DNA of 64,000 nucleotides from Spirochaetia bacterium (GCA_965198005.1 CBDAOI010000004.1:1568001-1632000), one strand, 5' to 3'; positions 8,413-61,571 are shown, counted from the stretch's first letter. The notes: generated by a model from the sequence alone, not told the origin. Made by a program: numbers and translations.

Positions 8413-8602
8413 GAGAATAGGCTGATGTGGGGCACGACGTCGTTCGTGCCGCTCATCTCGGTCTGTCGACCCGCTGTCGACAGTAGGCGTTGCGAGACAG
8501 GCTGGTGGTTGTCGCTCGCACGTTGCGTGGCGACACTATCGGTATGATCAGTGCTCGACTGGCGATAACCGGGAGGCGGGCGCCGACGAGGCAAAATCGC
8601 TG

Positions 8603-8834
8603 TTGACATTACTTGCGCCGGGCCCCATGGTACTAGCTAGCTCACGATTGGACGGATGGTGATGAAGTCGGGCTTGACTAGGTCAGGCGAGCCTGAGACG
8701 ATAGGGAGTAAGGTGATCGAAGGATGCCGATGAAGCGCCATGACGACAGTCAGCGCAGTGACGGGTTGGCGGTGACGCAGGGTGATGAGCGCGGTGGGTC
8801 GCGCTTGACACGGATTTGGGGCGGCCTCTACAGT
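8603..8834 (+). promoter_or_regulatory. Three tandem sigma70-like promoters upstream of operon 1
   Basis: TTGACA-17-CATGGT (8603), TTGACT-17-GACGAT (8674), TTGACA-18-TACAGT (8805), separated by the shared GGAT..GATGAAG(CGCCATGACGAC) unit. Confidence 0.6.
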
Positions 8835-9184
8835 TGTCCGCGAATGGGCACTGACACCATCCAGCCCGACTACCGACTAGCCGCGCAGCAGCGGACCTCG
8901 CGGCGCCGGTGCTGAGCGCGGCACCATCGATCGGTGTGGCGCACAGCCGCCACGCGTCCGCGCGTCTAACGGCCGACAGCGTCGGCCGCAAACTCCACCG
9001 GTCCACAGCAGCGTGCGTAGCGACACTCGCCGGCACCTCTATACAGACAACCGACACATCTGTGCCCGACCATAGTTGTCGACGACAGATGCTCGCTAGC
9101 CGCGGCACCGGCCGGTCCGATGGCCGAGCCACCGTCCTGTCAAGGCACCCAATAGCTCAAATAGCACAAAAGAGGGGGTGCAAA

Positions 9185-9362
9185 ATGATACTCAAAGAGC
9201 CGTAGGCGCGTGCGGCGTGAGCCCGGGTAAACCCGGTGAGTCACGCGCCGCGCGCGTGTAGTGAATCTGACTCAGACTGGCCGTCCGCGTTTGCGGGCGC
9301 GCCCGCGTTGCGGTGCGTCAGAGTAGCCAGGGAGCGGCAGTCCGCTTCGCAATACTCTCGAG
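9185..9362 (+). promoter_or_regulatory. uORF (MILKEP*, shortened copy) and structured 5' leader of operon 1
   Basis: Homologous to the four other leaders; hairpins ccggg-taaa-cccgg and agagta...tactct. Confidence 0.65.
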
Positions 9363-9384
9363 AACACATTTCATGGAGAAAACA

Positions 9385-11166
9385 ATGAAGATACTAATCA
9401 CAAGGACCTTCGCGATTGCGTTGGTCCTCGTAATGACCGCAACCGGCCTCTGGGCCGCCGGCGCAGAAGAGGAGCCGGCAGCCGCTGCCGACAAGAAGTA
9501 TGTGACAGACCCCAGCACCGGCAAACCGGTGACCGCGCCGGAGTACGGCGGGTCTTTGACCTTTGCAACTATGCTCGAGCCACCGAGTGCTGATACCGGT
9601 GTGTACGGCAGTGCAGGACTGGCCATCGCTGGCGTTGCAGAGCGGCTACTCATCCCCAATTGGGCAGTAGATAGGGACGAATATGCGTTCTCGAGCCAGT
9701 ACATCCCGGCAGAGTTCGCGGCAGGGCAGCTGGCGGAAAGCTGGGAACAGCCCGACCCACTAACGTATGTCTTCCAAATCCGCCAGGGCGTTCACTGGCA
9801 TGATAAGCCACCGATGAACGGTCGGGAGCTGACTGCCGATGATATCGAATACAACTATCACCGTATCTTGGGACTCGGGAGCGGCTTCACCGAAGGTTTA
9901 CCCTATTCGCAACTGGCAGGTATAGGAATCGAATCGGTAACGGCCACCGACAAATGGACGGTTGTTTTTAAGCTGAAGGAACCAAGACTCGCTGCACTGC
10001 AAATGATCATGGTTGCCTATATGTCGTTTATGTTGCCCCCCGAGGTAATCGAACAACATGGCGACATTTCGGATTGGAGGAACTTCGTCGGCACTGGGCC
10101 CTATGAGCTGACTGACTGGGTCCAAGGCACGTCTATCACCCACACCAAGAATCCCGACTACTGGGGCTTCGACGAAAAGTACCCGCAAAACCGCTTACCT
10201 TACATTGACAAGTTAGAGGGCCTTTTCGTCATGGAGGAAGCGACACGTCTGGCGGGATTGCGCTCCGGTAGGATCGATTTCCTGGGTTTCCCTGCTGGGG
10301 TCTCTGATATCGTGTCGGTCGACGTGCTTGATAGCCTCCGGAAGACCAATCCTGAAATCGTGCTGATCCCGTGGTGGGACCGTTCGGAAACCTCTTATGG
10401 CCTTGACGTGACCAAGCCGCCGTTTGACGACATCAGGGTGCGCCACGCAATGCAGATGGCATTGGACCTTGAGACAATTAACAATACCTACTACAAGGGC
10501 ACTGCAATGTGGAAACCTCAGGGACTCGTAGGGGAAGCTCTCAAAGGGTATTACACGCCGTTTGACGAGTGGCCCGACGAGGTCAAGAAAGCCTATGCCT
10601 ATGACCCGGAGGGGGCGAGGCAGCTTCTGGCGGAAGCTGGCTATCCCAATGGCTTCGAGACGGTCTTGACCGCAAGCAGTGAGTTCGATGTGGGGTACGC
10701 TGAAATAGTGGCAGGATACTGGAAGGCAATTGGCGTCGATGTAGAGATCAGGGTGTTGGACCGGGCTCAGCTTATGCCTCTAGCTACAGAAGGAAACTGG
10801 GAAGGTATGGCTGGGACAGTTACCGGCTGGAATAATCCTTGGGGTGGTGTAGGGGTTCTACGCAATATGGCTCACTCGACATCACTTGTCAAATTCAAAG
10901 GACGTTCTGAGTTGGTGGATGCTATGATTGAAGCCGCCGAATCCGCTACCTCGATTGCAGAGGAGCAGAGGCTGGGTAGAGAGGCAGATATGTACATGAT
11001 AGAGCAGCATTTCTATATATGGGGTCCTAAAGTTGGAAAGTACATGGCGATCCAGCCGTGGGTCGAAGGTTATAACGGAGAAGTCCACTTTGGGGCCCAG
11101 CACCGACTTCTCATCTTCGCCCGCCTCTGGATTGATAGTGAGCTGAAGGAAGCAATGGGTCATTAG
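9385..11166 (+). CDS. Family-5 (peptide/nickel) ABC substrate-binding protein, operon 1
   Basis: Signal peptide, APEYGG, LAESWE, GTGPY, PPFDDIRVR, YDPEGA; GGAG before ATG 9385. Confidence 0.95.
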   Translation: MKILITRTFAIALVLVMTATGLWAAGAEEEPAAAADKKYVTDPSTGKPVTAPEYGGSLTFATMLEPPSADTGVYGSAGLAIAGVAERLLIPNWAVDRDEYAFSSQYIPAEFAAGQLAESWEQPDPLTYVFQIRQGVHWHDKPPMNGRELTADDIEYNYHRILGLGSGFTEGLPYSQLAGIGIESVTATDKWTVVFKLKEPRLAALQMIMVAYMSFMLPPEVIEQHGDISDWRNFVGTGPYELTDWVQGTSITHTKNPDYWGFDEKYPQNRLPYIDKLEGLFVMEEATRLAGLRSGRIDFLGFPAGVSDIVSVDVLDSLRKTNPEIVLIPWWDRSETSYGLDVTKPPFDDIRVRHAMQMALDLETINNTYYKGTAMWKPQGLVGEALKGYYTPFDEWPDEVKKAYAYDPEGARQLLAEAGYPNGFETVLTASSEFDVGYAEIVAGYWKAIGVDVEIRVLDRAQLMPLATEGNWEGMAGTVTGWNNPWGGVGVLRNMAHSTSLVKFKGRSELVDAMIEAAESATSIAEEQRLGREADMYMIEQHFYIWGPKVGKYMAIQPWVEGYNGEVHFGAQHRLLIFARLWIDSELKEAMGH

Positions 11167-13569: not shown

Positions 13570-13840
13570 CGCCGACCGGTGCGTGCGCGGCCGAACGGCA
13601 GCCCGCGGGTCACGCCGGATGAACGGTGACCTCCACCCGATGGCGCCCTCCCTGGCGCCCCAGGTGTGCATGCGCCGTTGGCTGTTCCGGAGGCGCGCCC
13701 GGAACGCGCCCGACCAGGTCGACCAGCGCGGGGCTGTGTATGGGCGTGACCTGGCCGGTCAGCTCAAGGCGTCGCCTGGCATCGTAGTGTCTGCGCATCA
13801 TCGGGCACCGCAGACCGAGTCGGCGGAGTGTACCGAGTCG
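13570..13840 (+). repeat. Boundary repeat R2, downstream of operon 1
   Basis: gtcacgccggatg..gtgacctccaccc...ccggaggcgcgcccggaac...ggcaccgcagaccgagtcggcg shared with copies at 16.3, 22.8, 30.8, 36.2, 42.0 and 42.5 kb. Confidence 0.9.
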
Positions 13841-15585: not shown

Positions 15586-16149
15586 AGACGCTCCTTCTCA
15601 TGGACGTGCTGTGTGACATTGCGCCGGTGCGCCTTGATGACCTCGAATGTTGGCATCATGCGCTCGGCCGAGCCAGGGATCAGCTCGTACTCCCGCATGA
15701 TGGACCCGCGGGAGCGTGGGCACCGTTACCTGAACGTCCAACACCTGAGGCTGTGTTGAAGGTGGCTGGGTGAGACAAGTGCGTCCTCGGGTGTCAGAAC
15801 CATTCTATCGAAGTGGTGGAAGACATCCCCTAACTGAGAGAATGCAACAAGATGGTCAGCGCGACCATGCCATCGCTGTATAGCGACGCGAGTAGACCGG
15901 TCGCGAGTCACGGTGGCTATCGTCAAAGTTCCTGGTCGCGCCGCTTCGCCCACGGTCTGCAACCGAGCAGCGTGGCGCAGGGACTGCCCGGCTGGGGTAG
16001 CCGCCGGACAAACCAGCTTGGCCAGCTGCATACCCGAACGGGACGTCATCGGCCGGATATGCGCCTCCCTTCAGACGACGGATCGCTACGTCGGACCGGA
16101 CCGACAAGTTTCGCCCAGAGAGCGCCCGATTAGCAGCATCGACGTAGCT

Positions 16150-16625
16150 GACCGGCTCGGTCAGCGGGTTCCATGACTCGGCGCTGGTGAGCGTGATGGT
16201 GCACGTGGCTCCGGACGCGCCCAATTCGCCCGCGCCCTCCATGGCGCGGGAACGCCTGTGGTGGGCCCCATGGACGGGGCCCACGAACGGATGACGCGTC
16301 AGTCGTGTGATGAGTTACCCGTGCACTTCGCCGACTCGGTCTGCGGTGCCCGATGATGCACAGACGCTGCGATGCCATGCGCCGCTGCGAACTGACCGGC
16401 CAGGTCATGCCCATACAGAGCCCTGCGCTGGTGACCTGGTCGGGCGCGTTCCGGGCGCGCCTCCGGAAAACAGCAACAACCTCTCCCAGCCGACGACGTC
16501 CCTGTCGCGGGCCGGGAGCTACAGTCCAGCCGTGGCGCCAGGGATGGCGCCACGGCTGGAGGTCACCGTGCATCCGGCGTGACCCGCGGGTTGCCGGTCG
16601 GCCGCGCACGCACGGGTCGGCGTGG
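16150..16625 (-). repeat. Boundary repeat R2 with extension, downstream of operon 2
   Basis: Reverse complement matches ~30772-31265 and 13570-13840. Confidence 0.9.
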
Positions 16626-18728: not shown

Positions 18729-19721
18729 TCAAAAAACAACGTCTACTCCCCTTTCTCGGAGCTTGGAGATATGGACTTCCTTCGATGTCTCGCTCAAGGG
18801 GTTACCGGACAAACTGACTGTGTCCCCCTCAGAGAGCCCGCGGTTCTCGACCAGTGGTGAGATGTCGACTATCTGGTTGAACATGAGGTCGAGCTGGGCG
18901 AGATTAGTCAGGGAAGCTAGCGGTGAGAGGTCACTTATCTGATTCTGCTCAAGGCTGAGCGAGGTGATGCTGGTGAGGGAAGCTACCGGTGAGATGTCGC
19001 TTATCTGGTTCTGCTCAAGACTAAGCGCGGTTAAGTTGGTCAGCGGAGCCAGTAAGGAAGCCAGTAGTGAGAGGTCGCTTAGCTCGTTCCCCGTAAGGTC
19101 GAGCTCGGTGAGATTAGTCAGGGAAGCTAGCGGTGCAATGTCGCTTATCTGGTTCAACGCAAGGTCGAGCTCAGTGAGGTTAGTCAGAGAAGCCAGTGGT
19201 GAGATGTCGCTTATCCGGTTCTTCCTAAGGCCGAGATTGGTGAGATTAGTCAGGGAAGCTAGCGGCGAGATGTCGCTTATCCGGTTGTCGTAAAGGCTGA
19301 GCGAGGTGAAGTTGGCGAGCGAAGCCAGTGGTGAGAGGTCGCTTATCCGTCCATAGTGGAAAACCAGCTCGGTAAGGTTACTCAAATACTCCAATCCGGC
19401 GAGGTCGGTGATCTTGACTCTCGCATATCCCCTGCCTGATTCACGAAGCGAGGTGATGGTTTCCAGCTCCGAAACATGGATGGGACCTTGATGCTTCTGG
19501 ATAGCTGCCCTTATGACTCTCTCAAGAGCTTCGTCGGGGATGGTGACCCCTTCGCCCACTTCTTCTGTAGCACTAACAGGTTCTTCTGTAACACTAACAG
19601 GTTCTTCTGCAGTACTTGCAGGTTCTTCTGCAGTATTTACAGGTTCTTCCGCAGGGCCACAGCCGGAAAGAGTGAATATCATTACGAAGACAACGAACAA
19701 AGGCAAGCATTTCCTATCCAT
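18729..19721 (-). CDS. Internalin-like leucine-rich-repeat lipoprotein
   Basis: Lipobox LSGC, 7-aa EEPVSxT repeats, IPDEALERVIR cap, multiple 22-aa ISDISPLASLTNLTELDL repeats. Confidence 0.9.
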   Translation of the reverse strand: MDRKCLPLFVVFVMIFTLSGCGPAEEPVNTAEEPASTAEEPVSVTEEPVSATEEVGEGVTIPDEALERVIRAAIQKHQGPIHVSELETITSLRESGRGYARVKITDLAGLEYLSNLTELVFHYGRISDLSPLASLANFTSLSLYDNRISDISPLASLTNLTNLGLRKNRISDISPLASLTNLTELDLALNQISDIAPLASLTNLTELDLTGNELSDLSLLASLLAPLTNLTALSLEQNQISDISPVASLTSITSLSLEQNQISDLSPLASLTNLAQLDLMFNQIVDISPLVENRGLSEGDTVSLSGNPLSETSKEVHISKLRERGVDVVF

Positions 19722-19840: not shown

Positions 19841-21655
19841 CTAACGACCCATGGCGTTCTTCAGCTCACTATCGATCCAGATCCGGGCTTGGACGGTATT
19901 ACGTTCACCCCATCCCATTCCTGCTTCACCGAAATAACCCTCGACCCACGGCTGGCTCACGGAAAACTTAGGGGACTTGGATTTGACTAGGCCCCAGTGC
20001 TCCCTCACAGTGATCTCATCGGCCTGTCTCAAAAGACTCCTATACTCCTCCATGTCGGTAGTTTCTTGGGAGGCAAGATACAGGGCGTCCATACGCGGGT
20101 CCTTCGCTTTGTTGTAGCTCCAGCCAAAGTTTTGGCTAATCCCCTTCATGGGGTTCCAAGTGGTGACGCCGCTGCCGCCATTATATCCCCCTTGCACTAG
20201 CGCCCACTCGTGCGTGTCCGCGCTATTGTCAGCGTTATGCTCAGCGATAGTCTGCGGAACAAGCTCGCCTTCAACGCCAATGGCGTCGAAGTACCCCATG
20301 ATGAGTTCTGCATAGTCTGTGGTGTACCTCTCAAAGGCCCTTACCTTGAGCTTGAATCTATAGCCGTCGGCGCCGCGGGGATACCCGGCCTCATCAAGGA
20401 GCTCCTCGGCCCTTTCGGGGTTATAGGTATATTCTTGCTTGACCTCCTCGGGCCACTCTTCATATGGCCAGGCCCACCCTTCTTCAAGATCTTGTCTCAT
20501 TAACCCGGCAGGCGCTGGATCTCCATAACCCTTAAAGAAGCTGGCGGAATTTACCTCGCGGTCCACTGACATCTGCAGTGCCTTGCGCACAATGGGGTCG
20601 TCAGTGGGCGGCAAAGCCCAGTTAAAAACGAAAACGCCGGCCGGTGCCCCAAGAAAGGGCCACACCTCGATTTCAGGGTTGGTCCGCTCGAGGGTCTCCA
20701 AATCGTCGACATTGTATATCCAAGAGTCGCCGAAGTTACCCATCACATCAATCTTACCCGTGCGGAATGCCGCCAGACGTGCCGACATCTCTCGCATCAT
20801 CAGGGACCTTAACTCGTCAATATAGGGGAGACGGTTCTCCGGGAATTTTTCGTCGTAGCCCCAGTAGTTAGGATTCTTCTCCCAGGTTACAGAGCTGCCG
20901 TCCACGTACTCAGTCAGTCTCCAGGGCCCGGTGCCGACCAGATTGCTCCAGTCCTTAGCGTCTCCGTATTTCTCGATTACCTCGGGAGCGTACGCAACCC
21001 AGTAGGGGTTGAGCAGTTTCCCCAGCACATCGAGGGTAGGCTCCGTCAGCTTCATAACAACCGTCCATTTGTCGGTGGCAGTTACCGATTCGAGACCTAC
21101 ACCCCAGGTGGTAGCAAATGTATGGGCGCTAGGTCCGGCCTCGGTGAAATCGCCCAGACCGAAATAGCGGTGATAGTTGTGTTCGACGTCATAGGCATCG
21201 AACTCCCGACCGTTCACCGGCTCCTTATCGTCCCAGTAAACGCCCTTGCGGATGTTCCAGATGAACGTTGTGTCGTCGGGCATTGACCAGCTTTCAGCCA
21301 GAGCCCCTCGAGTCATCTCTGGGCTCACAATGGCGTAGTCTCTACCGTTCCATATGTCCCTGGATAGTCCCCAGTCGGCGAACGCTAGCCTCTCAGTAAC
21401 ACCACCGACGAAATGATGCGCCCAGCCACTAACCCACCAATGGTCAGCATTTTCAGGATACGCCGTAGCGGCCCACGTGAGTGTGCCGCCGTACTCCGGC
21501 GCGGTCCACGTCATACCGGTGGCGGGGTCGAACACCGTCTCTTTGTCGGCAGCGGCTCCCGGTGCCTCTTCTGTGCCACCGCCGGCCCAGAGGCCGGTTG
21601 CGGTCAGAACTAGGACCAACGCAATCGCGAAGGTCCTTGAAAAAAATAGCTTCAT
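19841..21655 (-). CDS. Family-5 ABC substrate-binding protein, operon 2
   Basis: Signal peptide, APEYGGTLT, LAESW, GTGPW, YNPERAEELLDEAGY. Confidence 0.95.
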   Translation of the reverse strand: MKLFFSRTFAIALVLVLTATGLWAGGGTEEAPGAAADKETVFDPATGMTWTAPEYGGTLTWAATAYPENADHWWVSGWAHHFVGGVTERLAFADWGLSRDIWNGRDYAIVSPEMTRGALAESWSMPDDTTFIWNIRKGVYWDDKEPVNGREFDAYDVEHNYHRYFGLGDFTEAGPSAHTFATTWGVGLESVTATDKWTVVMKLTEPTLDVLGKLLNPYWVAYAPEVIEKYGDAKDWSNLVGTGPWRLTEYVDGSSVTWEKNPNYWGYDEKFPENRLPYIDELRSLMMREMSARLAAFRTGKIDVMGNFGDSWIYNVDDLETLERTNPEIEVWPFLGAPAGVFVFNWALPPTDDPIVRKALQMSVDREVNSASFFKGYGDPAPAGLMRQDLEEGWAWPYEEWPEEVKQEYTYNPERAEELLDEAGYPRGADGYRFKLKVRAFERYTTDYAELIMGYFDAIGVEGELVPQTIAEHNADNSADTHEWALVQGGYNGGSGVTTWNPMKGISQNFGWSYNKAKDPRMDALYLASQETTDMEEYRSLLRQADEITVREHWGLVKSKSPKFSVSQPWVEGYFGEAGMGWGERNTVQARIWIDSELKNAMGR

Positions 21656-21679
21656 CGTTTCTTCCTTCAAAGTTATCTT

Positions 21680-22260
21680 GAGAGTATTGCGTAGCGGATT
21701 GCCGCTCCCTGGCTACTCTGACGCCCGCAACCGCGGGCGCGCCCGGCAACGCGGACGGCCAGTCTGAGTCAATTTGTGAAGCGGGCGGCGTGTGACTCAC
21801 CGGGTTCACCCGGGCTCACGCCGCGCGCGCGTGCGGTTCTTTGAGTATCATCTTCACCTCCTTCTTGGGGCACAGGGTGCCCTGCCAGATGGCTGACGTA
21901 AGATGGGATCCGCGTGCGCGGCCCATCATGCAAACGCCCACCGCTCGGCGGACGTCGGGACCTGCGTCACAACGCCACGCGGGGCGGTGGTCGGCCGAGC
22001 AACGAATGTGTTTGGCCGGCGACGTCGGCGGTCGGTTCTGTGACGGTGAGTTGGGGGGCGGGGATCCAGGACCGTTGCGGTCGTAGCCGGCCGCTACCCC
22101 GGTGCTGAAGGCGACGGCGTGCGCGGGGTCGCGTACGGGGCGATCAGCCGGAGCGGTTAGTTGATTCTCGGTTCGAAAAAGTACGGGGGGGGGGGGGGGG
22201 GGGGGGGGGGGGTATGATGCACCGGTCGCGTCACAGCGAACCGGTCACTGCGCTTACGCC
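21680..22260 (-). repeat. Type-A leader of operon 2, including G28 tract at 22185-22212
   Basis: Near-identical to ~29832-30390 and ~40802-41360. Confidence 0.95.
21816..21851 (-). CDS. Leader uORF MILKEPHARAA
   Basis: AAGGAGGTG Shine-Dalgarno; conserved in four copies with synonymous changes. Confidence 0.6.
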   Translation of the reverse strand: MILKEPHARAA

Positions 22261-26729: not shown

Positions 26730-26747
26730 ATTCCCGATATTCCTCCC

Positions 26748-37301: not shown

Positions 37302-37319
37302 GTTCTTGATTATCCCCCT

Positions 37320-47362: not shown

Positions 47363-47594
47363 GCAGGGACGCTTGCCGCCTTCTCTGATCAGGGATTGGC
47401 GGTAGGCTTGAAAGTCGAAGCCGTCTAGTTCAGGATGATCCAGCTTTTAGGTGGGGGTCACCGTTGTACCCGGAGTAAGTACTGGCGGTGGCCCCTATCT
47501 TTTTTCGTGATCTCCGGAACGCTTCCCGGGCGAACCTATCCTACCCCACTGGCGGATTTGTCCACATCTCGGAAATCTCACCTGGCGGGCAACA

Positions 47595-48069: not shown

Positions 48070-48545
48070 CAGGGTCAGGCACAGGCCTGACCACAGCGCC
48101 AGCCACGGCGCCTGCTCCATGTACTTGCGGCCGTCCCGGCTCAGCAGCGTCCCCCAGCTCGGAATCTCGGGCGACAGTCCGAACCCCAGGAAACTCAGCG
48201 ACGCCTCGCTGATGATCACCGCGCCGATGTTGATGCAGCCCCGGAAACGCCATCCAGGCATCGACAACCCGCTGGACCACCAGGTCCAGCTTGCCACCGA
48301 AGAATCCGGCCGTGCCGCCGATCAGCACCGCAACCAGGACGTTGAGGCTGGTCGCGACCAGGCCGACGAACATGGAAATACGCGCCCCGTGGATATTGCG
48401 GCTCAAGAAGTCGCGCCCCAACTGATCGGTACCCATCAGATGCTCGGCCGACGGGGGCTTCAGCAGCGCTCTCAGGTGCACTTCATCGAAAATCGCCACC
48501 AGAATCAAGCCCAGTACGACCACGCCGCCAGCGGTGCCGAGCGGC
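48070..48545 (-). pseudogene. dppC: GC-rich DppC permease with several deletions
   Basis: PLGTAGGVV...MGTDQLGRD...AWMAFPG / INIGAVIISEASLSFLG; near-identical in part to ~50940-51265. Confidence 0.85.
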
Positions 48546-48547
48546 TC

Positions 48548-48866
48548 TCTACGTCGACGCCAATGGCCTGCCAGTAGGAGGCAGCGAATTGTGCATAGTC
48601 GAAATCGGCATGTTCGAAATGGGACTCGGTAGCCTTGATTCGAATACCGTCGGCGCCGCGCGGATATCCAGCCTCATCCAGAAGCTTCTCGGCCCCTTCC
48701 GGGTCGTAGTAGGTGTCGTTCATCGTCTCGAGGTCGAGTGCCATCTGCATCGCCCGGCGCACCCTGACGTCTTTTGAGAACGGATTGTCCTTGCTCATGT
48801 TAAAAGCGAAAGCGTTCTCCGACCGAATCGACCACGGGTAGAATGTGATTTCGGGGTTGGTCCGCA
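48548..48866 (-). pseudogene. Family-5 SBP internal fragment with deletion
   Basis: RTNPEITFYPW...DVRVRRAMQMALDLE...YY/DPEGAEKLLDEAGYPRGADG. Confidence 0.85.
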
Positions 48867-48956
48867 TGGAGGGGTCGGGGAATTCGCGGCTGACCGCCGT
48901 ACGCGAAGCGTAGTAGTACTTGCCTTCCATCGCTGCCGGACGTACATTGGCCGTAC

Positions 48957-49244
48957 ATGCCGACAGTCACGAACCGTCGCCGCAGCGAGCGTTTGGAAGT
49001 CAGGACCACGCCGGAGGATCGCACTCTCATCGACCGAGCCGTTGCCGCGGAGGGAACTGATCTCACTGCGTTCGTCGTGAGCAGCGTCACAACCGCTGCG
49101 CGCCGCGTGCTCGCGGATCGGTCCGCGTTCATCATGACCCCCGAAGTTGCCAAGGTCTGGGAGGCCACCAACAAGCGCCAAGCCCGGGACTTGCCCGGAC
49201 TTCGCAAGCTGATGAAGCGTGCCTCACCCTTCGTCACCGGATGA
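48957..49244 (+). CDS. DUF1778 antitoxin
   Basis: RSERLEVRTT...LIDRAVA...AFVV...AARRVL. Confidence 0.9.
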   Translation: MPTVTNRRRSERLEVRTTPEDRTLIDRAVAAEGTDLTAFVVSSVTTAARRVLADRSAFIMTPEVAKVWEATNKRQARDLPGLRKLMKRASPFVTG

Positions 49245-49926: not shown

Positions 49927-50232
49927 TCAGGCTGGTTCGTAGCGCTGAACTGCGATCTCACTCGCACGTGCACGCATCTGAGCGGCATCGTACCATGCCT
50001 GCATCTTCAGCAGCAGGTCCAGGCTGACGTCGAAGGCTTTCTCGATGCGCAACGCCATTTCCGGAGAGAGCGAGGCGTTGCCATTGAGCAGGGCCGAGAG
50101 GGTCGCCCGACGGACCCCGAGAATCAGGGCTGCCCTCGTTACGCTCAGCCCCAACTCCTCAATAACCTCCGTGCGGATAAAATCGCCCGGATGAGATGGG
50201 GCCATGTTCACTTCGATACCGTTGGTAGCCAT
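49927..50232 (-). CDS. higA: HigA antitoxin
   Basis: HPGDFIRTEVIEELGLSVTRAA...LSPEMALRIEKAF. Confidence 0.95.
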   Translation of the reverse strand: MATNGIEVNMAPSHPGDFIRTEVIEELGLSVTRAALILGVRRATLSALLNGNASLSPEMALRIEKAFDVSLDLLLKMQAWYDAAQMRARASEIAVQRYEPA

Positions 50233-50522
50233 CAGTGGTAATCCTCCAGATTCAAGCTGTCGATGTAGCCGTCCTCTACTGCAAACGTGATCCGCCAATT
50301 GCCGGAGACCGAAACGCTCCAGTCGTGCTGCCGGTCACCGGAGAGTCGGTGAACACGCCAGCCAGGCGGCGCCGCGGCAATAAACTCGTCAATGTTCTCG
50401 GCCAGGATGAACACGGTCAGGATCTTTCGCACTCGGTCGACAAGGTCCTGCGGCAGAAACCTGGGGTTGTCGTCCTCGAGCAGGCGGCGCAACCCCCGGT
50501 GACGCACAGAGCGAATGATCAC
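50232..50522 (-). CDS. higB: HigB (RelE-like) toxin
   Basis: IRSVRHRGLRRL...PGWRVHRLSGDR..WSVSVSGNWRITF...LEDYH. Confidence 0.9.
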   Translation of the reverse strand: MIIRSVRHRGLRRLLEDDNPRFLPQDLVDRVRKILTVFILAENIDEFIAAAPPGWRVHRLSGDRQHDWSVSVSGNWRITFAVEDGYIDSLNLEDYH

Positions 50523-50717
50523 GCCACAAGCGTACGGCTGCACCGTTCGCGTGGCAAGCAGCGCGTCGTGCGCGGTGGCGCGGCAAGCGGTGCCCGTTTC
50601 CCGGATCCGCGGCATCTCCCGGCGGTGGCGCGAGGTCGAAGTGTTCGGGAGGCTGTGACCTGCCCTCACCCGCGCGACCGGCTGCGACCGGACCTGGGCC
50701 GTGCCCGCCGGCCGCGG

Positions 50718-51347
50718 CGCCGCCACGTTGGGCAGCACGTGGCGCACCAGCGCTCCCATCCGGGTGCTGCCGGTGGCCGTGGCCGCCTGCAGGTAGTCGT
50801 TCTCCTTGACCGCGATTACCGCGCCTCGGACCAGCCGCGAGGCCACCACGCCGCCCGTGACGCCCAGCACCAGGATGAGCTGCAGCAGGCCCTGTCCGAC
50901 CAGCGACATGATCGTCAGCAACAGGAGCAGACCCGGAAACGCCATCCAGGCGTCGACAAACCGCTGCACCACCAGGTCCAGCTTGGCGCCGAAGAATCCG
51001 GCGGTGCCGCCGATCAGCACCGCAACCAGGACGTTGAGGCTGGTCGCGACCACGCCCACGAGCATGGAAACCCGAGCCCCGTGGATATTGCGGCTCAAGA
51101 AGTCGCGCCCCAACTGATCGGTACCCATCAGATGCTCGGCCGACGGCGGTTTCAGCAGCGCTCTCAGGTGCACTTCATCGAACGGATAGGGGGCCAGCAC
51201 GTCGGCGAAGATCGCCACCAGAATCAAGCCCAACACGACCACGCCGCCAGCGGTGCCGAGCGGCTTCTCGCGCCACAGCCGGAGCAGAAAGTGAACCAGC
51301 CCCGCTGATGGTGTCCTTGCGGCGTCCCCCATGCGCTCGGTCCCCAT
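50718..51347 (-). pseudogene. dppC: GC-rich DppC permease, 3'-truncated
   Basis: EKPLGTAGG...MGTDQLGRD...RHVLPNVAAP, then unrelated sequence. Confidence 0.9.
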
Positions 51348-51364
51348 ACCTGGCTAGGTGTAGC

Positions 51365-51885
51365 GCGGGTGACGACCGGAATGAGGGCGTTCTTGACGGC
51401 GTGCCGGATGACCACGACCCGCTCCCGCAGTCCTTTCGACCAGGCGGTTCTGATGTAGTCCTGGCGCAGCACCTCCAGCATCATGGTGCGCGTCATGCGC
51501 ATGGTGGCTGCCGACAGCGCCGTCCCCAGGATCAGGCCGGGAATGATGAACATGCCCAGGTGTCCCAGCGGGTCGTCGGAGAACGGAATGAGCTGCATCC
51601 GTGGCGTCCAACCCCACCAGATCACCGGATAGGTCATGAGTCGCCGAGGGTGCCGCGCAGGATAATGCCCTCCAACCAGCGGCCATACTGCACGTGGACC
51701 GGCACGTCCAACCCCAGCTCGTGCAGCAGCGCCTCGCGGTCCAGGCCGAACAGGGCATTGTCAGTCGCCACCATCTGGTCTATTACGTCGCCCGGGATGA
51801 AGCGGGCCGAGAGGAAAACCAGAATGCTCAATATGAAGAGCGTAGGGATGACGAGCAGCAGCCGCCGGATGACGTAGGCTCGCAT
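51365..51885 (-). pseudogene. dppB: GC-rich DppB permease with internal and 3' deletions
   Basis: MRAYVIRRLL...GTLGDS / MTYPVIWWGW...KNALIPVVT. Confidence 0.9.
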
Positions 51886-51996
51886 AGGCAGTTGAAGGCG
51901 CAGCGATTCCGTCGCAATGAGCGGGAGAGCCGAGCGGCGACGCTCACCTGCGAAGCCTCTCCGCTCTCCCTGCGGCAACCTGCGAGGGAAAAGCCC

Positions 51997-52668
51997 CTAC
52001 TGACCCATTTCTTTCATCAGATCGTGGTCGAACCAGAGGCGGGAGAACACGAGAATACGGTCATCGCCGCCCAAGGTTGCTTCACCGTTATAGCCTATGA
52101 CCCACGGCTGCACTGCGTTGAAGTTTGGAACCACGGGACCCCATATAGTGATGTGGTTCCGTATGTAGTACATATCTGCCGCTTTGACCGCCCTCTGCTG
52201 CTCCTCGACACTGGTAGCGTCTCGGACGGCTTCAAACAGCCGGTCATATTCCGGATCGTTGTAGTGTGGGGGGTTCCATGTTGCCCCCGAGAAATAGTAG
52301 CCAATCGGCTCGACCGGGGCAAGATACTGGACCGCAGCAGCCCAGGAGACCATGTCTCCGTATTGCGCTTCACGAACCATGCCCCCGTAAGCACCCGCCG
52401 GCGGAATGGACACATCCACGTCAACGCCAATTTCCATCCAGTAGCCGGCCACGAGTTCGAAGTAGTCAATGGCAAACTCGAAAGCGGTCATGGTGGCCTT
52501 CAATCGAATGCCGTCCGCGCCGCGCGGATATCCCGCCTCATCCAGGAGCTTCTCAGCTCCTTCCGGGTCATACGTATAGGCCTTCTTGACCTCTTCGGGC
52601 CACTCTCGGAATGGAGTATTGTACCCTACGAGGGCCTCCCCTATCAAACCCTGAGGCTGCCACTTGGA
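51997..52668 (-). pseudogene. C-terminal third of a family-5 SBP
   Basis: KWQPQG...YDPEGAEKLLDEAGYPRGADG...SRLWFDHDLMKEMGQ. Confidence 0.9.
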
Positions 52669-52670
52669 CA

Positions 52671-53177
52671 ATCCCCGTGTCGCTTGATAGCACCTACCAG
52701 TTGAACACGGGTGGCAACACGGATTTCCTCAATATGAAGGCCTTAGACCGCCTGAAGTCCAAGAAAGTCTCCAAGACGGAGTCCGTGCAGTCGCAATTGG
52801 ACGAACGGCTGGATTCTCGGAACATTCATATTGGACCGTCCGACTACGTGCCGTGGCAGGGCGACAACAAGGTTGCCTTCATCCGGATGGAAGGTCGCGG
52901 CTTCGGGGACGTGCCGTTGGAACTCGAACTCAGGCTGTCGGTCCAGGATTCCCCCAACAGCGCCGGCGTGGTCATCGATGCCATCCGTTGCGCCAGACTG
53001 GGGTTGGAGCGCGGCATCGGCGGACCATTGGAGGCGCCTTCCGCCTACTATATGAAAAGCCCTCCGAAACAGATGCGTGATTCGGTGGGCCATGATTTGA
53101 CCGAGGCATTTATTCAAGGTAGTGATGCCGGCGGCACTTCCAGTACGGAGGATGTTCGAACAACCGCCGGTGAATAG
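52671..53177 (+). pseudogene. ino1: myo-inositol-3-phosphate synthase, 5'-truncated
   Basis: [42 protein letters not shown]. Confidence 0.9.
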
Positions 53178-56995: not shown

Positions 56996-57007
56996 CCCCC
57001 CCCCCCC
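56996..57007 (+). repeat. C12 tract at the position homologous to the type-A leader tracts
   Basis: Directly follows the promoter repeat unit. Confidence 0.85.
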
Positions 57008-57199
57008 GCTAGCCGCCCAGCCAACCGCGCGGCAGCCGAGTGCGCGGCCCCGGTGCTGACTGCGGCACCATCGATCGGTGTGGCGCACACCCGCCACGCC
57101 TCCCTGTCCGGAACGGCAGACCACGTCGGCCGCAGCCTCCACCAGTGCACTGAGCCAGCGTTGCCGGCAACCCCAGCTCGAGCACCCAGCTACAGCTCA

Positions 57200-57520
57200 C
57201 CTTCCGTGACTGCGTTCCCGTGTGGGGTGACCATAGCCGCGCCGCCTGCGGCAGCTCCCGTCCTTGTTCGCGGGCTTTCTCCGTTCATCGTCGGCGCACG
57301 TCCTTGGATTCCCGACACGGCCCGCGGCGCCATCCGCCACCGGCGAAGCTGGGATCTCCCGGCTCCCGCGCAGGGTGCCGTGACGCCTCGCAATATCGGC
57401 GTCCCGGGTGTGGCCGCCCTCGCGAGCGGCGGCGCATGACTCGGGGCCGCCGTGGGTCGCTAACCCTTCGACGTATGACCCTTTCATTCACAACAACCCT
57501 GCCGGTTTTTGCCGGCGCAC
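57200..57520 (-). mobile_element. Group II intron 5' (domain I) remnant with no RT
   Basis: Starts GTGCG exactly where leader homology resumes; contains gaagggttagcgacccacggcggccccgagtcatgcg and gggagatccc...ggccgtgtcgggaatccaaggacg...gatgaacg...gaacaa. Confidence 0.7.
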
Positions 57521-57532
57521 AGGAGGTGCAAA

Positions 57533-57568
57533 ATGATACTCAAAGAACCGCACGCGCGCGCAGCGTGA
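57533..57568 (+). CDS. Leader uORF MILKEPHARAA
   Basis: AGGAGGTG Shine-Dalgarno; conserved. Confidence 0.6.
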   Translation: MILKEPHARAA

Positions 57569-57703
57569 ACCCGCCGAGTCCCACGCCGCGCGCTCTTAGT
57601 GGATTTGACTCGGACTGGCCGCCTGCGTTGCGGGCTGCGAGAGTAGCCAGGGAGCGGCAATCCGCTTCGCAATACTCTTAAAGATCAAGATACGGAGTTA
57701 CGT

Positions 57704-59527
57704 ATGCTAATTGTACACACGAGGACCTTCGCGGTTGCGTTGGTCCTGGTTCTGACCGCAACCGGCCTCTGGGCCGCGGGCGCAGACGAGGAGCCGGCAG
57801 CCGCCGCCGAGAAGGAGATGGTGCTCGATCCGACCACCGGCGAGATGGTGGAGGCGCCGCAGTATGGCGGGACACTAACCTATGGCCTGGTCAGTTGGGC
57901 CGCGAACGTTGATGACTGGTATGGCTACGCGAAGGATAACACCGGTTTGGTTAATGAGCAGCTCGCCATCTGGGACTGGGGAATAGATAGGGACGTCTGG
58001 GACTGGCGGATCTTCGCAGAGACACCTGTATGGGCCATAAACGGGGCACTGGCGGAAAGCTGGGAAACGCCCGACGATACCACCATTATCTTCAACATCC
58101 GCAGGGGCGTTCACTGGCACAACAAGGCGCCGATGAACGGTCGGGAGCTCACTGCCGAGGATGTAGAATACAACTTTCACCGCTATTTTGGGAATAGGTT
58201 GGCAGGGACCGAGTTCAGTGAAGCCGAACCTACCCCAGCGGCACGTAACCTCGTAGCTTTGCCAGTCGAATCGGTAACGGCCACCGACAAGTATACGATG
58301 GTCGTCAAGCTGGAGAAGCCAGACCTCAGCGCCGTGAAACACTTTATCGGCTACGGCTACGGTGGATCGGGTACGGTAATGCCTCCGGAGGTCATCGAGC
58401 AACACGGCGACTATCAGGATTGGCGGAACACGGTCGGCACCGGACCCTATGAGCTGACGGAGGTGGTCGAAGGCAGCTCCAGGACCTGGACCAAGTATCC
58501 TGACTACTGGGGCTTCGACGAAAAATACCCGGACAACCGCCTGCCCTATGCTGACGAGATACGGGCCTTGCGGATGGCGGAGTCAGCAACCCGTCTGGCG
58601 GCTCTGCGCACGGGTAAGATTGATATCCTGGGTCCCGGCGCCAGTACATTGAGGTCGATCGACACGGTAGAGAGCCTCGAGCGGACCGACCCGGAAATCG
58701 AGCTGTGGCCGTTCAAGTTTCGGTCCGACAACCAATTCTATATCGTCCGTATGGACATACCGCCCTTGAATGATATCCGGGTGCGCCAGGCACTGCAGAT
58801 GGCACTGGACCTGGAGACCGTTGTAGCTACCTACTTCAAGGGTCGTGGCGATGCGACTCCGCAGGGACATTTCGCCAATGATGTGCCGGGGATTGGCACG
58901 CCATTTGAGGAGTGGCCCGAAGAGGTCAAGAAAACCTATCGGTATGACCCGGAAGGGGCCGAAGCGTTGCTTGATGCGGCCGGGTATCCGCGCGGCGCCG
59001 ACGGCATCAGGTTCAAGATGGGCATGGCCTACTTTGAACGATACGATGTGAGCTATGCGGAACTGGTCGCCGGATACTGGCGCGAGATTGGCGTGGACAC
59101 GGAGACTGATGTTTTAGCTGGTGGGTCAGCCGAAATAACAATGGTCTATAATGATCCAGATCAGGATACGTACATAATTAGATGGGGGGAAGGGGCCTTC
59201 AGGTATGGTATCCCGGATCGTCTGACATCACAATTTTATAAAGGCAACCTCAGCACCGGCCACTTGAACGACCCCGAATATGACGCCATGGCTGACGCCG
59301 TCATGGCCGCTACCACCCTCGAGGAGATGAATAGGCTGGTAAAAGAAATAAATATGTACATCACGGAACAGCATTTTAAGATATGGGGTCCTGAAACCCC
59401 ACAGTACCAGGCAACGCAGCCGTGGGTCAAAGGTTTTAACGGAGAACTCGGATCTTTTTCCGACGGGTTGAAACACTTAGCCCGCATCTGGATTGACCAG
59501 GAGATGAAGGAAGCAATGGGTTTTTAG
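57704..59527 (+). CDS. Family-5 ABC substrate-binding protein, operon 5
   Basis: Signal peptide, APQYGGTLT, LAESWE, GTGPY, YDPEGA. Confidence 0.95.
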   Translation: MLIVHTRTFAVALVLVLTATGLWAAGADEEPAAAAEKEMVLDPTTGEMVEAPQYGGTLTYGLVSWAANVDDWYGYAKDNTGLVNEQLAIWDWGIDRDVWDWRIFAETPVWAINGALAESWETPDDTTIIFNIRRGVHWHNKAPMNGRELTAEDVEYNFHRYFGNRLAGTEFSEAEPTPAARNLVALPVESVTATDKYTMVVKLEKPDLSAVKHFIGYGYGGSGTVMPPEVIEQHGDYQDWRNTVGTGPYELTEVVEGSSRTWTKYPDYWGFDEKYPDNRLPYADEIRALRMAESATRLAALRTGKIDILGPGASTLRSIDTVESLERTDPEIELWPFKFRSDNQFYIVRMDIPPLNDIRVRQALQMALDLETVVATYFKGRGDATPQGHFANDVPGIGTPFEEWPEEVKKTYRYDPEGAEALLDAAGYPRGADGIRFKMGMAYFERYDVSYAELVAGYWREIGVDTETDVLAGGSAEITMVYNDPDQDTYIIRWGEGAFRYGIPDRLTSQFYKGNLSTGHLNDPEYDAMADAVMAATTLEEMNRLVKEINMYITEQHFKIWGPETPQYQATQPWVKGFNGELGSFSDGLKHLARIWIDQEMKEAMGF

Positions 59528-59538: not shown

Positions 59539-59582
59539 GGGAGCTGGGAGGCGGTCGCCTGCAGGCGCGCCTCCCAGCTCCC
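59539..59582. other. Post-SBP hairpin
   Basis: gggagctgggaggcg...cgcctcccagctccc preceded by an A-run. Confidence 0.8.
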
Positions 59583-59615
59583 ACAAACGCCGTGTAGAAT
59601 GGCGAGACCTGTCAC

Positions 59616-60629
59616 ATGAGAGCCTATATCATCAGGCGGTTATTGCTTATAATCCCGACCTTGTGGATATTGACCACTCTGGTCTTTCTCTTGGTCCGCT
59701 TCCTCCCGGGCAACGTAGTAGACATGATGGCGCTGAGGATGGAAATCTCAGGGTTCGGGGGAGCGGACACGATTGACCGTGAAGCTATGGAACGTATGCT
59801 GGGACTGGACGTGCCTGCCCACGTGCAGTATGGACGCTGGATGGGAGTGTTGCCGACCCCTGACTGGATTACCGGTGAGTCCCACTTTAGAGGTCTCCTC
59901 CAGGGCACCCTTGGAGAATCACTGATCACCTCGCATTTGACGGTAGAAAAGGAGATATTCGGTAGATTGCCGGTAACCATTCAGCTCGGCATCATGGCGA
60001 TCGTCATCGGGCTCGTGCTAGCGCTGCCCGTCGGCATTTACTCGGCGATTCGCCAGGATACGGCCGCCGACTACCTGGGGCGCACCGCGGCCGTCATCGG
60101 CCTGGCTACGCCGAACTTCTGGCTGGCCCTGATGGTCATGATCTTCCCAGTAATATGGTGGGGCTGGGCGCCCCCTCTGGAATACATTCCTTTCATCGAA
60201 GACCCACTGGGAAGTCTCGCGGGGTTATTCGTTCCCGGCCTGATTCTGGGGACTGCCTCGGCTGCAGCCACCATGCGGATGACCCGCACCATGATGCTGG
60301 AGGTGCTCAGGCAAGACTATATCAGGACCGCCTGGTCCAAGGGTCTCAAGGAGAGGGTCGTTATTATGAGGCACGCTATCAAGAATGCCCTCATACCCGT
60401 GGTTACCCTGATAGGTCTGCAGTTGCCTATCCTGATAGGTGGCTCCGTCATCATAGAGACCATCTTCAACCTGCCCGGGATAGGTCGCCTCGTGGTGTTC
60501 GCCCTCACTGAGAGAGACTACCCGGTGGTCTCCGGAGTAAATCTGTTTTTCGCGACCGGGGTCTTAGGAGTCAATCTAATGATCGATCTGATCTATTTCT
60601 ATTTGGACCCCAGGGTCCGCTACAGTTAG
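59616..60629 (+). CDS. dppB: DppB-type ABC permease, operon 5
   Basis: MRAYIIRRLL, QDYIRTAWSKGL, RDYP. Confidence 0.95.
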   Translation: MRAYIIRRLLLIIPTLWILTTLVFLLVRFLPGNVVDMMALRMEISGFGGADTIDREAMERMLGLDVPAHVQYGRWMGVLPTPDWITGESHFRGLLQGTLGESLITSHLTVEKEIFGRLPVTIQLGIMAIVIGLVLALPVGIYSAIRQDTAADYLGRTAAVIGLATPNFWLALMVMIFPVIWWGWAPPLEYIPFIEDPLGSLAGLFVPGLILGTASAAATMRMTRTMMLEVLRQDYIRTAWSKGLKERVVIMRHAIKNALIPVVTLIGLQLPILIGGSVIIETIFNLPGIGRLVVFALTERDYPVVSGVNLFFATGVLGVNLMIDLIYFYLDPRVRYS

Positions 60630-60638
60630 AGAGGGCTT

Positions 60639-61571
60639 GTGAGCGACGCAGTCGAGGTACGATCCGCAGTAATCGCGTCAAAGAGACGTTCCCAGCTGGC
60701 CGAATTCTCTATAAGAATGGTGAAAGAGAAGCCGCTAGGTACTATCAGCGGGATTATCATATTGATATTGATTCTCGTCAGTATCTTTGCCGATGCTCTG
60801 GCACCCTATCCATACTGGGAAATGCACCTGGCAGACAGGCTGCAGGGCTCATCAGCCCAATATCTGCTGGGTACCGACCAGTTGGGGCGAGACTTCTTGA
60901 GCCGCATCATCGTAGGGGCTCGTCTTTCCATATTTGTCGGTCTGGCGGCGACCGCTCTCAATGTTGTGGTCGCTGTCCTGATAGGCGGCATTTCAGGATT
61001 CCTTGGTGGTAAATTGGACCTGGTTATGCAGAGATTTGTCGATGCCTGGATGGCTTTCCCGGGGCTGCTCATATTGTTGACCGTGATGTCCATAGCGGGG
61101 CGGGGTGTGTTGCAGATAATACTGGTCCTGGGGATAGCGGGAGGGATCGGCACCTCGAGAGTAGTCAGGGGCGCGGTTATCGGCATTAAAGAGAATGACT
61201 ATTTTCTGGCGGCCCCGGCAGTTGGCAGCGGCGGCACCGCGACACTGATGCGACACGTCCTGCCCAATATCATGCCTGTCTTGATCATCATATTCAGCAT
61301 CAGCGTCGGGGGGGTGATCATGAGTGAGGCCAGCTTGAGCTTCCTGGGATTCGGTCTGCCAGTCGAGGTTCCTAGCTGGGGAGGTCTGCTCAGCCGGGAA
61401 GGGCGCCAGTTCATGGAGGTGGCGCCGCGGCTGGCGATGTGGCCCGGTCTGTTCCTGACGGTGACGGTGTACTGCCTCAACATGTTCGGCGACGCGGTGC
61501 GGGATCTGCTCGACCCGCGGCTGCGGGGCGGTGGGGGTCACCTCGGGGCCGGCGGTGTCACGTCGGTTTAG
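60639..61571 (+). CDS. dppC: DppC-type ABC permease, operon 5
   Basis: LLGTDQLGRD, RHVLPN, EASLSFLG, DLLDPR. Confidence 0.95.
   Translation: MSDAVEVRSAVIASKRRSQLAEFSIRMVKEKPLGTISGIIILILILVSIFADALAPYPYWEMHLADRLQGSSAQYLLGTDQLGRDFLSRIIVGARLSIFVGLAATALNVVVAVLIGGISGFLGGKLDLVMQRFVDAWMAFPGLLILLTVMSIAGRGVLQIILVLGIAGGIGTSRVVRGAVIGIKENDYFLAAPAVGSGGTATLMRHVLPNIMPVLIIIFSISVGGVIMSEASLSFLGFGLPVEVPSWGGLLSREGRQFMEVAPRLAMWPGLFLTVTVYCLNMFGDAVRDLLDPRLRGGGGHLGAGGVTSV

Follow-up and report, generated by a model that had tools for sequence, protein, structure and literature searches.

How can the DNA upstream of a set of importer genes be almost identical when the genes behind it differ widely? The question is raised by a 64,000-nt stretch of the genome of a Spirochaetia bacterium (GCA_965198005.1, CBDAOI010000004.1:1568001-1632000; here called the window, to which positions refer unless one of the contigs, C1 to C4, is named), which carries five operons, op1 to op5, each encoding a solute-binding protein (SBP) and two permeases of an Opp/Dpp-type ATP-binding cassette (ABC) importer. 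ABC importers are textbook examples of stable, vertically evolving operons. The original prediction, made from this sequence, saw in the five operons a recombination-driven library of substrate specificities. Our analysis leads us to consider it probable that they belong to a very large family of ATPase-less importer cassettes, drawn from a pool that crosses phyla, whose upstream regions (leaders) are swapped or homogenised by recombination. The discordant histories of leaders and cassettes thus uphold the recombinational part of the prediction, while its local array gave way and no integron machinery was found.

Alignment of the five loci with MAFFT, read in 100-column windows, revealed that op2, op3 and op4 are preceded by 1.2 kb of DNA that is 94–100% identical among them, whereas the SBP genes of the same operons are 50–80% and their permease genes 75–90% identical, much as had been predicted. 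Identity at synonymous sites is 0.57–0.77 in the permeases and 0.48–0.53 in the SBPs, so that the leaders lie far above the synonymous level of the genes. What op1 and op5 have in common with the others is limited to ~200 nt around and before the start codon, at ~85% identity.

Parts of these leaders recur throughout the genome. For the segment between -125 and +89, which we term the M module (hairpins of the 5' untranslated region (5'UTR), ribosome-binding site (RBS) and conserved signal peptide), a DNA profile was built from five sequences and matched the genome 123 times; 113 start codons could be anchored in this way, 93 with an open frame of at least 520 amino acids. When the 113 leaders were grouped at 90% identity or more next to the M module, groups of 12, 7, 5, 3, 3, 3, 3, 2, 2 and 2 members emerged, the op2/op3/op4 type having 12 members spread over all four contigs. 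Each operon has a leader of its own (0.7–1.4 kb), and operons are spread over both strands and the four contigs; the local array behind one constant platform that had been proposed is therefore replaced by a genome-wide family. Across 1869 pairs, leader identity follows SBP identity weakly (Spearman 0.14); the coefficient for SBP against permease identity is 0.41.

In the 4.89-Mb genome, which is assembled in four contigs, there are 133 SBP_bac_5, 150 OppC_N and 8 oligo_HPY matches. Profiles made from the window genes detected 131, 137 and 139 full-length open reading frames (ORFs) for SBPs, DppB-like and DppC-like permeases, respectively, and 104, 92 and 113 partial ones; 78 operons are clean in the order SBP, DppB-like, DppC-like, and family ORFs make up 15.2% of the genome. 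First-look SBP candidates number 10–219 in congeners, 5–57 in the sister genus and 4–42 in other families of the order, the four lowest congeners (10, 37, 54 and 61) including two fragmented assemblies that are 76–81% complete. The GC content of the DppC-like genes in this genome is bimodal (0.54–0.56 and 0.62–0.72), a pattern that would fit newer and older residents. In support of the prediction, congeneric genomes differ in which cassettes they have and in where these lie.

Two further kinds of repeated DNA were seen among these operons. Some whole operons together with their leaders are 99–100% identical across contigs (C1:5109 and C4:1735324; C2:7543 and C3:799267; the closely similar pair C2:13295 and C4:693219), as would follow from segmental duplication in the very recent past or from contig ends that are redundant in the assembly. 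A repeat of 1.1–1.8 kb (95–97.5% identity) lies 1–2 kb upstream of many SBP genes, in at least 12 places of this genome (e.g. C4:394217-395999 and C2:735487-737267) and at 3440-4573 of a locus (L091) in the congener G001, where a tyrosine recombinase gene adjoins; its ORF ends, as judged by eye, in an IS4-like transposase motif.

Comparison with five congeners, G001, G005 and G006 among them, separated the history of the leaders from that of the cassettes. The op2 SBP of this genome (G000) has a 96% identical ortholog in G005 alone; op3 has orthologs in G005 and G006, and op4 has one in G001 (98–99%). The op2 and op3 orthologs of G005 lie on separate contigs, and between G000 and G001 no synteny extends past the op4 operon itself. 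Cassettes that are 96% identical stand behind leaders that are 38–85% alike, with borders near -210 to +90 of the ATG: op2 and its G005 ortholog are 38–53% identical upstream of -210 and have a different RBS and different codons at the start of the signal peptide, and the leader of op3 is 64–85% identical to those of its orthologs. The G005 leader of the op2 ortholog belongs to a different leader family and is made of modules that in G000 precede other cassettes, one of them matching, at 94% identity, leaders that belong to the SBPs at C4:412071, C4:381466, C3:979575 and C4:360568. Leaders of paralogues are thus more alike than those of orthologues (94–100% vs 38–85%) and the borders are sharp, as gene conversion predicts; leader and SBP histories are incongruent, orthologs carrying leaders of a foreign family and paralogues sharing one. 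Since the same cassette occurs behind different leaders and different cassettes occur behind one leader, these data indicate that leaders and cassettes recombine. Values of dN/dS of 0.18–0.57, for orthologs and a cross-lineage pair, indicate purifying selection on the proteins.

How far does the stock of cassettes extend beyond the genus? Scanning one genome per species with the DppC-like protein of op4 yielded 267 relatives, and the loci of the best 80 of these 267 were analysed; they come from records titled Spirochaetia, Dehalococcoidia, Caldilineaceae, Deltaproteobacteria or 'bacterium'. Cassette GC content is mostly 0.53–0.58 (up to 0.66 in a few Spirochaetia loci), and that of the flanks ranges from 0.41 to 0.70, with 0.61–0.70 in Spirochaetia, 0.59–0.63 in Dehalococcoidia and 0.41–0.52 in the 'bacterium' records; the coding blocks thus stay near 55% GC while host GC ranges over 44–66%. 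A FastTree phylogeny of 213 DppC-like proteins requires 22 changes of host group against a minimum of 4, and a quick IQ-TREE phylogeny of 70 concatenated permease pairs requires 19 against a minimum of 3, at least 11 of which are forced by its starred branches.

At the DNA level, a Spirochaetia locus (L007) and a Dehalococcoidia locus (L004) are 92.4% identical over 1659 nt of the SBP gene and 88.3% identical over 1918 nt of the permease genes. A cassette of G000 at C4:1319956-1323669 matches a locus from a 'bacterium' record (L030, flanks of 41–51% GC) at 94.7% over 1722 nt of the SBP gene, 97.8% over 1005 nt of permease B and 90.8% over 851 nt of permease C, and matches Dehalococcoidia loci at up to 91.4%. 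The homology between this cassette and L030 begins exactly past the signal peptide, breaks off with the stop codon of the SBP gene and is picked up again over permease B; the junction between permeases B and C and the N-terminus of the DppC-like protein are left out, and the match ends 40–80 nt before the DppC-like stop codon. That the junctions are unalike while the coding blocks are 91–98% alike goes beyond point mutation, and suggests that blocks were recombined into resident host-type operons or that junctions were converted from them.

The N-termini of the SBPs are likewise host-specific. In spirochaetes the signal peptide is nearly invariant (…LVLVLTATGLWAAGAEEE), and the low-GC records have MQSLLLTLTLMVAAFWVS-type signals; in Dehalococcoidia (L004, L027, L039 and others) a lipobox is followed by 8–12 tandem VEVPGETVVVEKEVVKT-like units, probably a long tether, before the mature domain. 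The start of the mature protein, K-K/N-Y-V-T-D-P-T-T-G-K, is common to all hosts, and the M module occurs only in loci of Spirochaetia-titled records (0 of 53 other loci). Together, these comparisons show that the cassette coding blocks belong to a pool common to Spirochaetota, Chloroflexota and unclassified low-GC bacteria, which the original prediction had not foreseen.

Leaders with repeats of another kind were seen in the low-GC 'bacterium' loci (L006, L030, L018 and others), which have tandem repeats of their own upstream of the SBP gene, with in-frame read-through 'VENVLSGTKAGFKSILNLVFNQK'; repeat-bearing leaders may be a convergent feature.

What could power so many permeases? The 8 oligo_HPY matches of the genome form four DppD/F-type pairs, none of them in the window. 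Three pairs sit in complete, distantly related operons; the fourth (C3:1172856-1174917) stands alone, with no family gene within 9 kb. When five other host genomes were compared, a single relative of its DppD-like protein stood out in every one: 82% identical in a spirochaete, 74% and 74% in low-GC records (next best in the same genome 52–53%) and 59–61% in Dehalococcoidia (next best 49–50%). Each of these relatives is adjoined by a second ATPase gene and has no SBP or permease ORF within 1.5 kb. With 8 oligo_HPY matches to at least 133 SBP and 150 OppC_N matches, the numbers agree with the proposed supply of ATPase in trans, as does the existence of the lone pair, which, we infer, may energise all cassettes. 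With one engine in common, it would be understandable that the permeases stay 75–90% identical as the SBPs drift apart. Among solved proteins, the best relatives of the SBPs bind peptides, dipeptides or heme (E 1e-31 to 1e-25).

The leaders themselves have an elaborate and regular build. The fixed order of parts set out in the original prediction was found in op2 to op4: a boundary repeat (BR), 130-nt tandem units, a poly-C tract, a 12-codon upstream open reading frame (uORF), hairpins, the signal peptide and SBP, a hairpin and the two permeases. The op3 leader (29808..31150, minus strand) serves as reference. Read in the operon sense, it consists of a hairpin-rich BR of ~350 nt (30800-31150), tandem units (~30390-30760), C10 (30335-30344), a C-rich spacer, the uORF MILKEPHARAA (11 residues, 12 codons; 30003-29968) behind AAGGAGG, its stop codon lying inside a stem, and the hairpins of the M module (29812-29935); there are four hairpins (folding z -3.7), followed by the RBS. 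On the same strand, the op2 leader (21656..23035) has an M module, a uORF, C28 at 22185-22212, tandem units at 22270-22622 and a BR at 22775-23035, and the op4 leader (40779..42288) has C10 at 41306-41315, tandem units at 41332-41968 and a BR at 41971-42288. On the plus strand, the op5 leader (56996..57703) has C12 at 56996-57007 and an M module, and op1 has an M module at 9260..9474 (ATG at 9385) that is one of the five sequences behind the DNA profile.

Among the 113 leaders, 72 have a uORF behind GGAGG, which reads MILKEPHARAA in 32, with close variants elsewhere. A run of at least seven C is present in 67 of the 113 (length 7–28, median position -510), against a genome-wide rate of 0.04 per kb, and 130-nt tandem units in 25, at 1–7 copies. 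The poly-C tract measures C28, C10, C10 and C12 in op2 to op5, the op2 to op4 leaders being otherwise near-identical, and its position ~500 nt upstream of the start codon probably places it in the 5'UTR. RNAalifold found only a 4-pair helix in 68 distinct copies of the M module; pairs were then counted on the hairpin read from the sequence, which precedes the RBS and has 93% of its cells paired. With their leader peptide, poly-C tracts of 7–28 nt and tandem units, the leaders are candidates for a new device of per-operon control or phase variation. In the G001 ortholog of op4, a single TTGACA-17-TATATT box (by eye) stands in place of the tandem units.

Public sequencing runs were consulted as short Logan contigs. 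op3 was detected in 20 runs, which belong to 10 studies; six of the runs are recorded as RNA, two of those six being labelled sponge metagenome; op3-specific contigs without mismatch occur in runs of several studies, and SBP-specific ones in RNA libraries. In two RNA libraries leader depth drops at least 20-fold upstream of ~30725, where DNA runs continue, and SBP-specific contigs are deeper than permease-specific ones, both of which are weak hints, being contig data onto which paralogues map too. Some contigs of three runs have a 3-base deletion at 30335, a place to which paralogous leaders also map.

These observations can be joined in a mechanism. Incoming coding blocks would be fitted into resident operons and their leaders swapped or homogenised, most likely by homologous recombination or gene conversion, for which the hairpin module of the 5'UTR, the signal peptide and the permease genes would provide handles; block exchange of this kind would need no site-specific system. 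All cassettes would be energised in trans by the lone ATPase pair. Each operon would be controlled by its long leader, through the 11-residue peptide with its stop in a stem, the C-rich spacer, the hypervariable poly-C tract and the hairpins, and the strong hairpin 3' of the SBP gene would favour SBP over permease mRNA. The outcome would be a large, individually tunable uptake repertoire in a sponge-type community. A broader version, which we offer only tentatively, is that symbionts of several phyla in one holobiont exchange a stock of receptors and permeases, the lone ATPase pair serving as engine and host-specific adaptor segments (leader, signal peptide or lipid-anchored tether, and intergenic junctions) as landing pads at which homologous recombination could install any incoming specificity, with switching or tuning of each by poly-C length, number of tandem units and leader peptide. 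No description of such a community-wide, modular and partly phase-variable uptake repertoire was found in the literature searched.

Pfam searches of the window define the five operons as SBP_bac_5 (E 1e-54 to 1e-73), BPD_transp_1 (+BPD_transp_1_N) and BPD_transp_1 (+OppC_N), the permease pairs being of BPD_transp_1 type with DppB- and DppC/OppC-type N-termini; the operons have ~53% GC against 66% for the genome. op1 (9385-13427, plus strand) comprises an SBP gene (9385..11166; E 8e-66, start set by alignment) and DppB-like and DppC-like permease genes (11509-12477 and 12495-13427). A BR copy on the minus strand lies 3' of it, directed into the operon (13584..13837; C4:1581682-1581833), with the opposite-strand pC gene at distance 0. 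op2 (21655-16797, minus strand) has its SBP gene at 19841..21655 (found by Pfam and alignment), its DppB-like gene at 17727-18683 and its DppC-like gene at 16797-17717; between SBP and first permease lies, on the same strand, a leucine-rich repeat (LRR) protein gene (18729..19721; LRR_4 E 1.5e-39) with internal 66/132-nt tandem repeats. Likeness to the G005 ortholog stops ~2100 nt past the SBP ATG. A BR copy 3' of op2, on the plus strand and directed into the operon (16148..16607), is 88% identical to 31265-30804.

op3 (29807-25809, minus strand) has its SBP gene at 27997..29807, with 96% orthologs in G005 and G006, and its permeases at 25809..27776. The SBP frame is broken near 29466-29490, splitting it into ORFs 29466-29948 and 27997-29490 and leaving 113 amino acids open from the ATG. 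In the intergenic region between SBP and permeases, 12 C on the plus strand (27803-27814; G12 in the op3 sense) form a second homopolymer within the operon. op4 (40778-36378, minus strand) has its SBP gene at 38955..40778 (Pfam and alignment; 98.5% identical to G001) and its permeases at 36378..38447 (99.2–99.3% identical to G001); at its 3' end is a partial BR on the plus strand (36139..36230), and likeness to the G001 ortholog ends at 36139. op5 (57704-61571, plus strand) has its SBP gene at 57704..59527, a strong hairpin right after the SBP stop codon (59539..59582; -52.3 kcal/mol for a 96-nt stretch, z -5.9) and its permeases at 59616..61571; a similar stem lies 3' of the op2 SBP gene.

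Relics of the family, detected with its profiles, are an SBP fragment with a DppC-like gene (coverage 0.73) from a high-GC member at 1041..3263 and an SBP fragment at 5014..5487, both on the plus strand and both outside the range (8590-61571) of the original prediction, and, on the minus strand, DppC-like and SBP fragments at 47495..48966 (coverage 0.18–0.37) and a relic operon at 50232..52728 with DppC-like (0.64), DppB-like and SBP (0.38) fragments. The predicted inventory of five full operons, at least four relics and no ATPase thus stands in its numbers and in the lack of an ATPase; two of the operons are not intact, given the broken op3 SBP frame and the LRR gene that splits op2. The boundary repeat expected after three of the five operons was present at op1, op2 and, in part, op4, and the toxin-antitoxin-like genes expected between operons were recovered as DUF5615 (13892-14233), ParE (31494-31790) and an HTH gene (32498-32821).

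Insertion sequence (IS) elements are represented by DDE_Tnp_1 (23303-25156) and IS66 (33555-35207); like the toxin-antitoxin genes, they look incidental. A Mu/Tn7-like pair (rve + Mu-transpos_C transposase and AAA_22 ATPase genes; 43966-46198, minus strand) interrupts a tyrosine-recombinase gene, the sole integrase-like gene of the window, of which a C-terminal fragment remains at 43518-44372 (minus strand); a transposon has probably inserted into that gene (43518-46198). Between the relic operon and op5, 52611-56767 (plus strand) encodes a myo-inositol-1-phosphate synthase fragment, a nucleotidyl-transferase/CDP-alcohol phosphatidyltransferase and an epimerase, housekeeping genes that place the cassettes within normal chromosome. 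A ~210-nt repeat (93% identity) occurs at 32887-33097, 42308-42518 and 14588-14744, direct copies flanking IS66 and op4; G001 gave a match to only one copy, and there ~640 nt separate the flanks that correspond to window 31686-32131 and 42307-43275; this points to an insertion/deletion polymorphism of the whole operon. Rfam at gathering thresholds gave 0 matches in the window, and no tRNA or tmRNA was found there.

Could the upstream platform have spread by itself? If it were a young non-autonomous mobile element, or a dispersed repeat of BOX/REP type, that settled around pre-existing operons, leader identity would reflect recent transposition and neither conversion nor swapping. The BR, which may be such a repeat, is present in 51 copies in the genome, of which 26 face into the 3' end of a DppC-like gene and 12 face the start of an SBP gene, so that inverted copies enclose many operons; leader modules also occur apart and in many combinations genome-wide, and IS elements abound near cassettes. 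Set against this, no empty site is seen at the op2 ortholog in G005, which follows a complete leader from a different family, with modules found upstream of other G000 cassettes. The swapped part also extends into the RBS and the first signal-peptide codons, the platform contains no transposase, and the leader beyond the poly-C tract has a conserved uORF and hairpins of regulatory appearance. We regard this account as unlikely. Less likely still is an integron-like system in which a tyrosine recombinase uses BRs as att sites to insert, excise or invert operons. BRs do bracket operons, three places have a Xer-like gene or fragment no more than 3 kb from two same-strand BRs (window 43518-44372; C4:1993.6-1996.3 kb; C3:765-767 kb, a short fragment), in the first two of which leader and cassette follow, and IS66 with op4 lies between direct 210-nt repeats whose matching flanks are adjacent in G001. 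Yet an intact relative of the recombinase scores 135 bits on the integron-integrase model TIGR02249, the cut-off of which is 265, and fits XerC/D models better, again below their cut-offs. Recombinase matches are not enriched: 4 of 46 lie within 3 kb of a BR (2.5 +/- 1.6 at random) and 18 of 46 near a family ORF (17.5 at random). No integron integrase was found in the window or by scoring the intact relative, and at the cassette borders a hairpin-rich repeat of ~350 bp was seen and no short attC-like sites, no attC model having been run. Each cassette has its own leader and both orientations occur, unlike integron cassettes, which lack promoters, face one way and share a promoter in front of them, and cross-phylum exchange is block-wise within coding sequence and not at BRs. 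On the integrase score and the lack of enrichment we rejected the integron reading. Tyrosine recombinase trios resembling recombinase-in-trio elements were noted at C3:906587-909037, C3:787472-789922, C2:907451-909901 and elsewhere.

Ordinary expansion of paralogues, with leaders kept alike by purifying selection on a regulatory RNA and no recombination between leader and cassette, would account for the conserved, functional-looking uORF, hairpins and signal peptide and for the degree to which permease and SBP identities correlate. It fails to account for 96% orthologous cassettes with unrelated or other-family leaders next to 50–80% identical paralogues with 94–100% identical ones, as selection cannot make paralogous leaders exceed orthologous ones over 1.2 kb that include tandem repeats; we hold it to be very improbable. 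An artefact of assembly or binning, with repeats collapsed, operons mis-joined or foreign reads built in, has to be considered in a family so repetitive, given whole operons 100% identical on different contigs, a contamination estimate of 3.3% and public short contigs that do not span the joins. The same architecture recurs, however, in several independent assemblies, single-contig chromosomes of 3.4–7.0 Mb included; cross-lineage copies are 91–98% and not 100% identical and come with host-specific signal peptides, junctions and flanks; and mismatch-free op3-specific contigs are found in runs of several studies. We give this explanation hardly any credence.

Our preferred reading, a family of ATPase-less cassettes from a cross-phylum pool with recombining leaders, has points of its own against it. 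Most leaders have no near-identical long counterpart: 71 of 113 are singletons at the 90% level. In 196 of 255 leader pairs with a 90% stretch the match lies in the distal part only, where it may reflect an IS or other dispersed repeat; an initial figure of 115 leader pairs therefore overstates true leader identity. In other hosts the excess conservation upstream is modest (80–83% vs 68–70%), copy counts for other phyla (77–248) are loose first-look candidates, and the low-GC records are titled 'bacterium', without a phylum name. No transfer vector emerged: no relative was found on IMG/VR viral contigs, and the best plasmid match has 49.6% protein identity. The hairpin has little covariation, with 12 double-change cells spread over 5 of its 14 pairs, and a consensus scan of 25600-31400 for sigma-70 promoters and terminators gave 5 promoter-like sites against 3.1 expected and none in the leader, so that 'promoter unit', the label first given to the tandem units, is at most a putative one. 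No recombination event was directly observed and no public contig spans the stretch, and the energising role of the lone ATPases is drawn from counts and likeness between sequences.

Taken as a whole, we rate the massive family, shared ATPase, gene conversion and horizontal transfer as known kinds of phenomena combined in an unreported way; no description of an ATPase-less cross-phylum cassette system was found in the literature searched. One importer class, devoid of ATPases, makes up ~15% of a genome and is 91–98% identical at the DNA level across Spirochaetota, Chloroflexota and low-GC bacteria, and its cassettes are re-fitted with each host's export signal and control region, an unusual route to a very large uptake repertoire. 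If this is true, a large paralogous family can be its own landing pad for inter-phylum transfer; one ATPase pair for on the order of a hundred permease pairs would be a concrete, testable case; and more than 100 natural binding proteins on a near-constant scaffold would show what sponge symbionts take up. Peptide/nickel ABC transport genes are reported to be enriched in Ircinia sponge metagenomes (PMC9531527); what we saw of that report concerns enrichment in gene counts, and not ATPase-less cassettes, copies per genome, near-identity across phyla or leader swapping.

How does the system compare with those already known? Opp/Dpp importers for peptides, opines or nickel (PepT-type), such as DppABCDF of E. 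coli, resemble it in having a family-5 SBP first, two BPD_transp_1 permeases (BPD_transp_1_N, OppC_N) and a hairpin after the SBP gene. The cassettes described here differ in lacking DppD/F, and hence the two in-operon oligo_HPY ATPases of that class, in exceeding 100 copies per genome, and in having SBPs distant from any solved one. MsiK of Streptomyces and MsmK of Firmicutes are multitask ATPases that serve many sugar importers; there, too, many SBP and permease operons lack an ATPase and a lone ATPase locus lies elsewhere. By contrast, the lone pair is of the two-ATPase Opp/Dpp type, would serve ~100 operons, and has unusually close relatives in other host lineages (74–82%).

With integrons and superintegrons the family shares many exchangeable units, border repeats and interspersed toxin-antitoxin genes, but its units are ~4.2-kb operons with their own leaders, in both orientations and on all contigs, with breakpoints in coding sequence. 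The multigene families pilE/pilS of Neisseria and vlsE of Borrelia undergo segmental gene conversion, and the likeness extends to conserved flanks around variable cores, paralogues more alike than orthologues and mosaic, block-wise exchange. They differ in that no single expression site with silent donors exists here, the protein is a solute receptor and not a surface antigen, and the donors include other phyla. Contingency loci resemble the leaders in the hypervariable poly-C tract at a fixed position, with length differences from copy to copy; here the tract lies ~500 nt upstream of the start codon and would be a candidate for switching. Finally, the conserved short uORF with its strong Shine-Dalgarno sequence, the adjoining C-rich spacer and an end inside a stem would be consistent with attenuation of the tnaC type.

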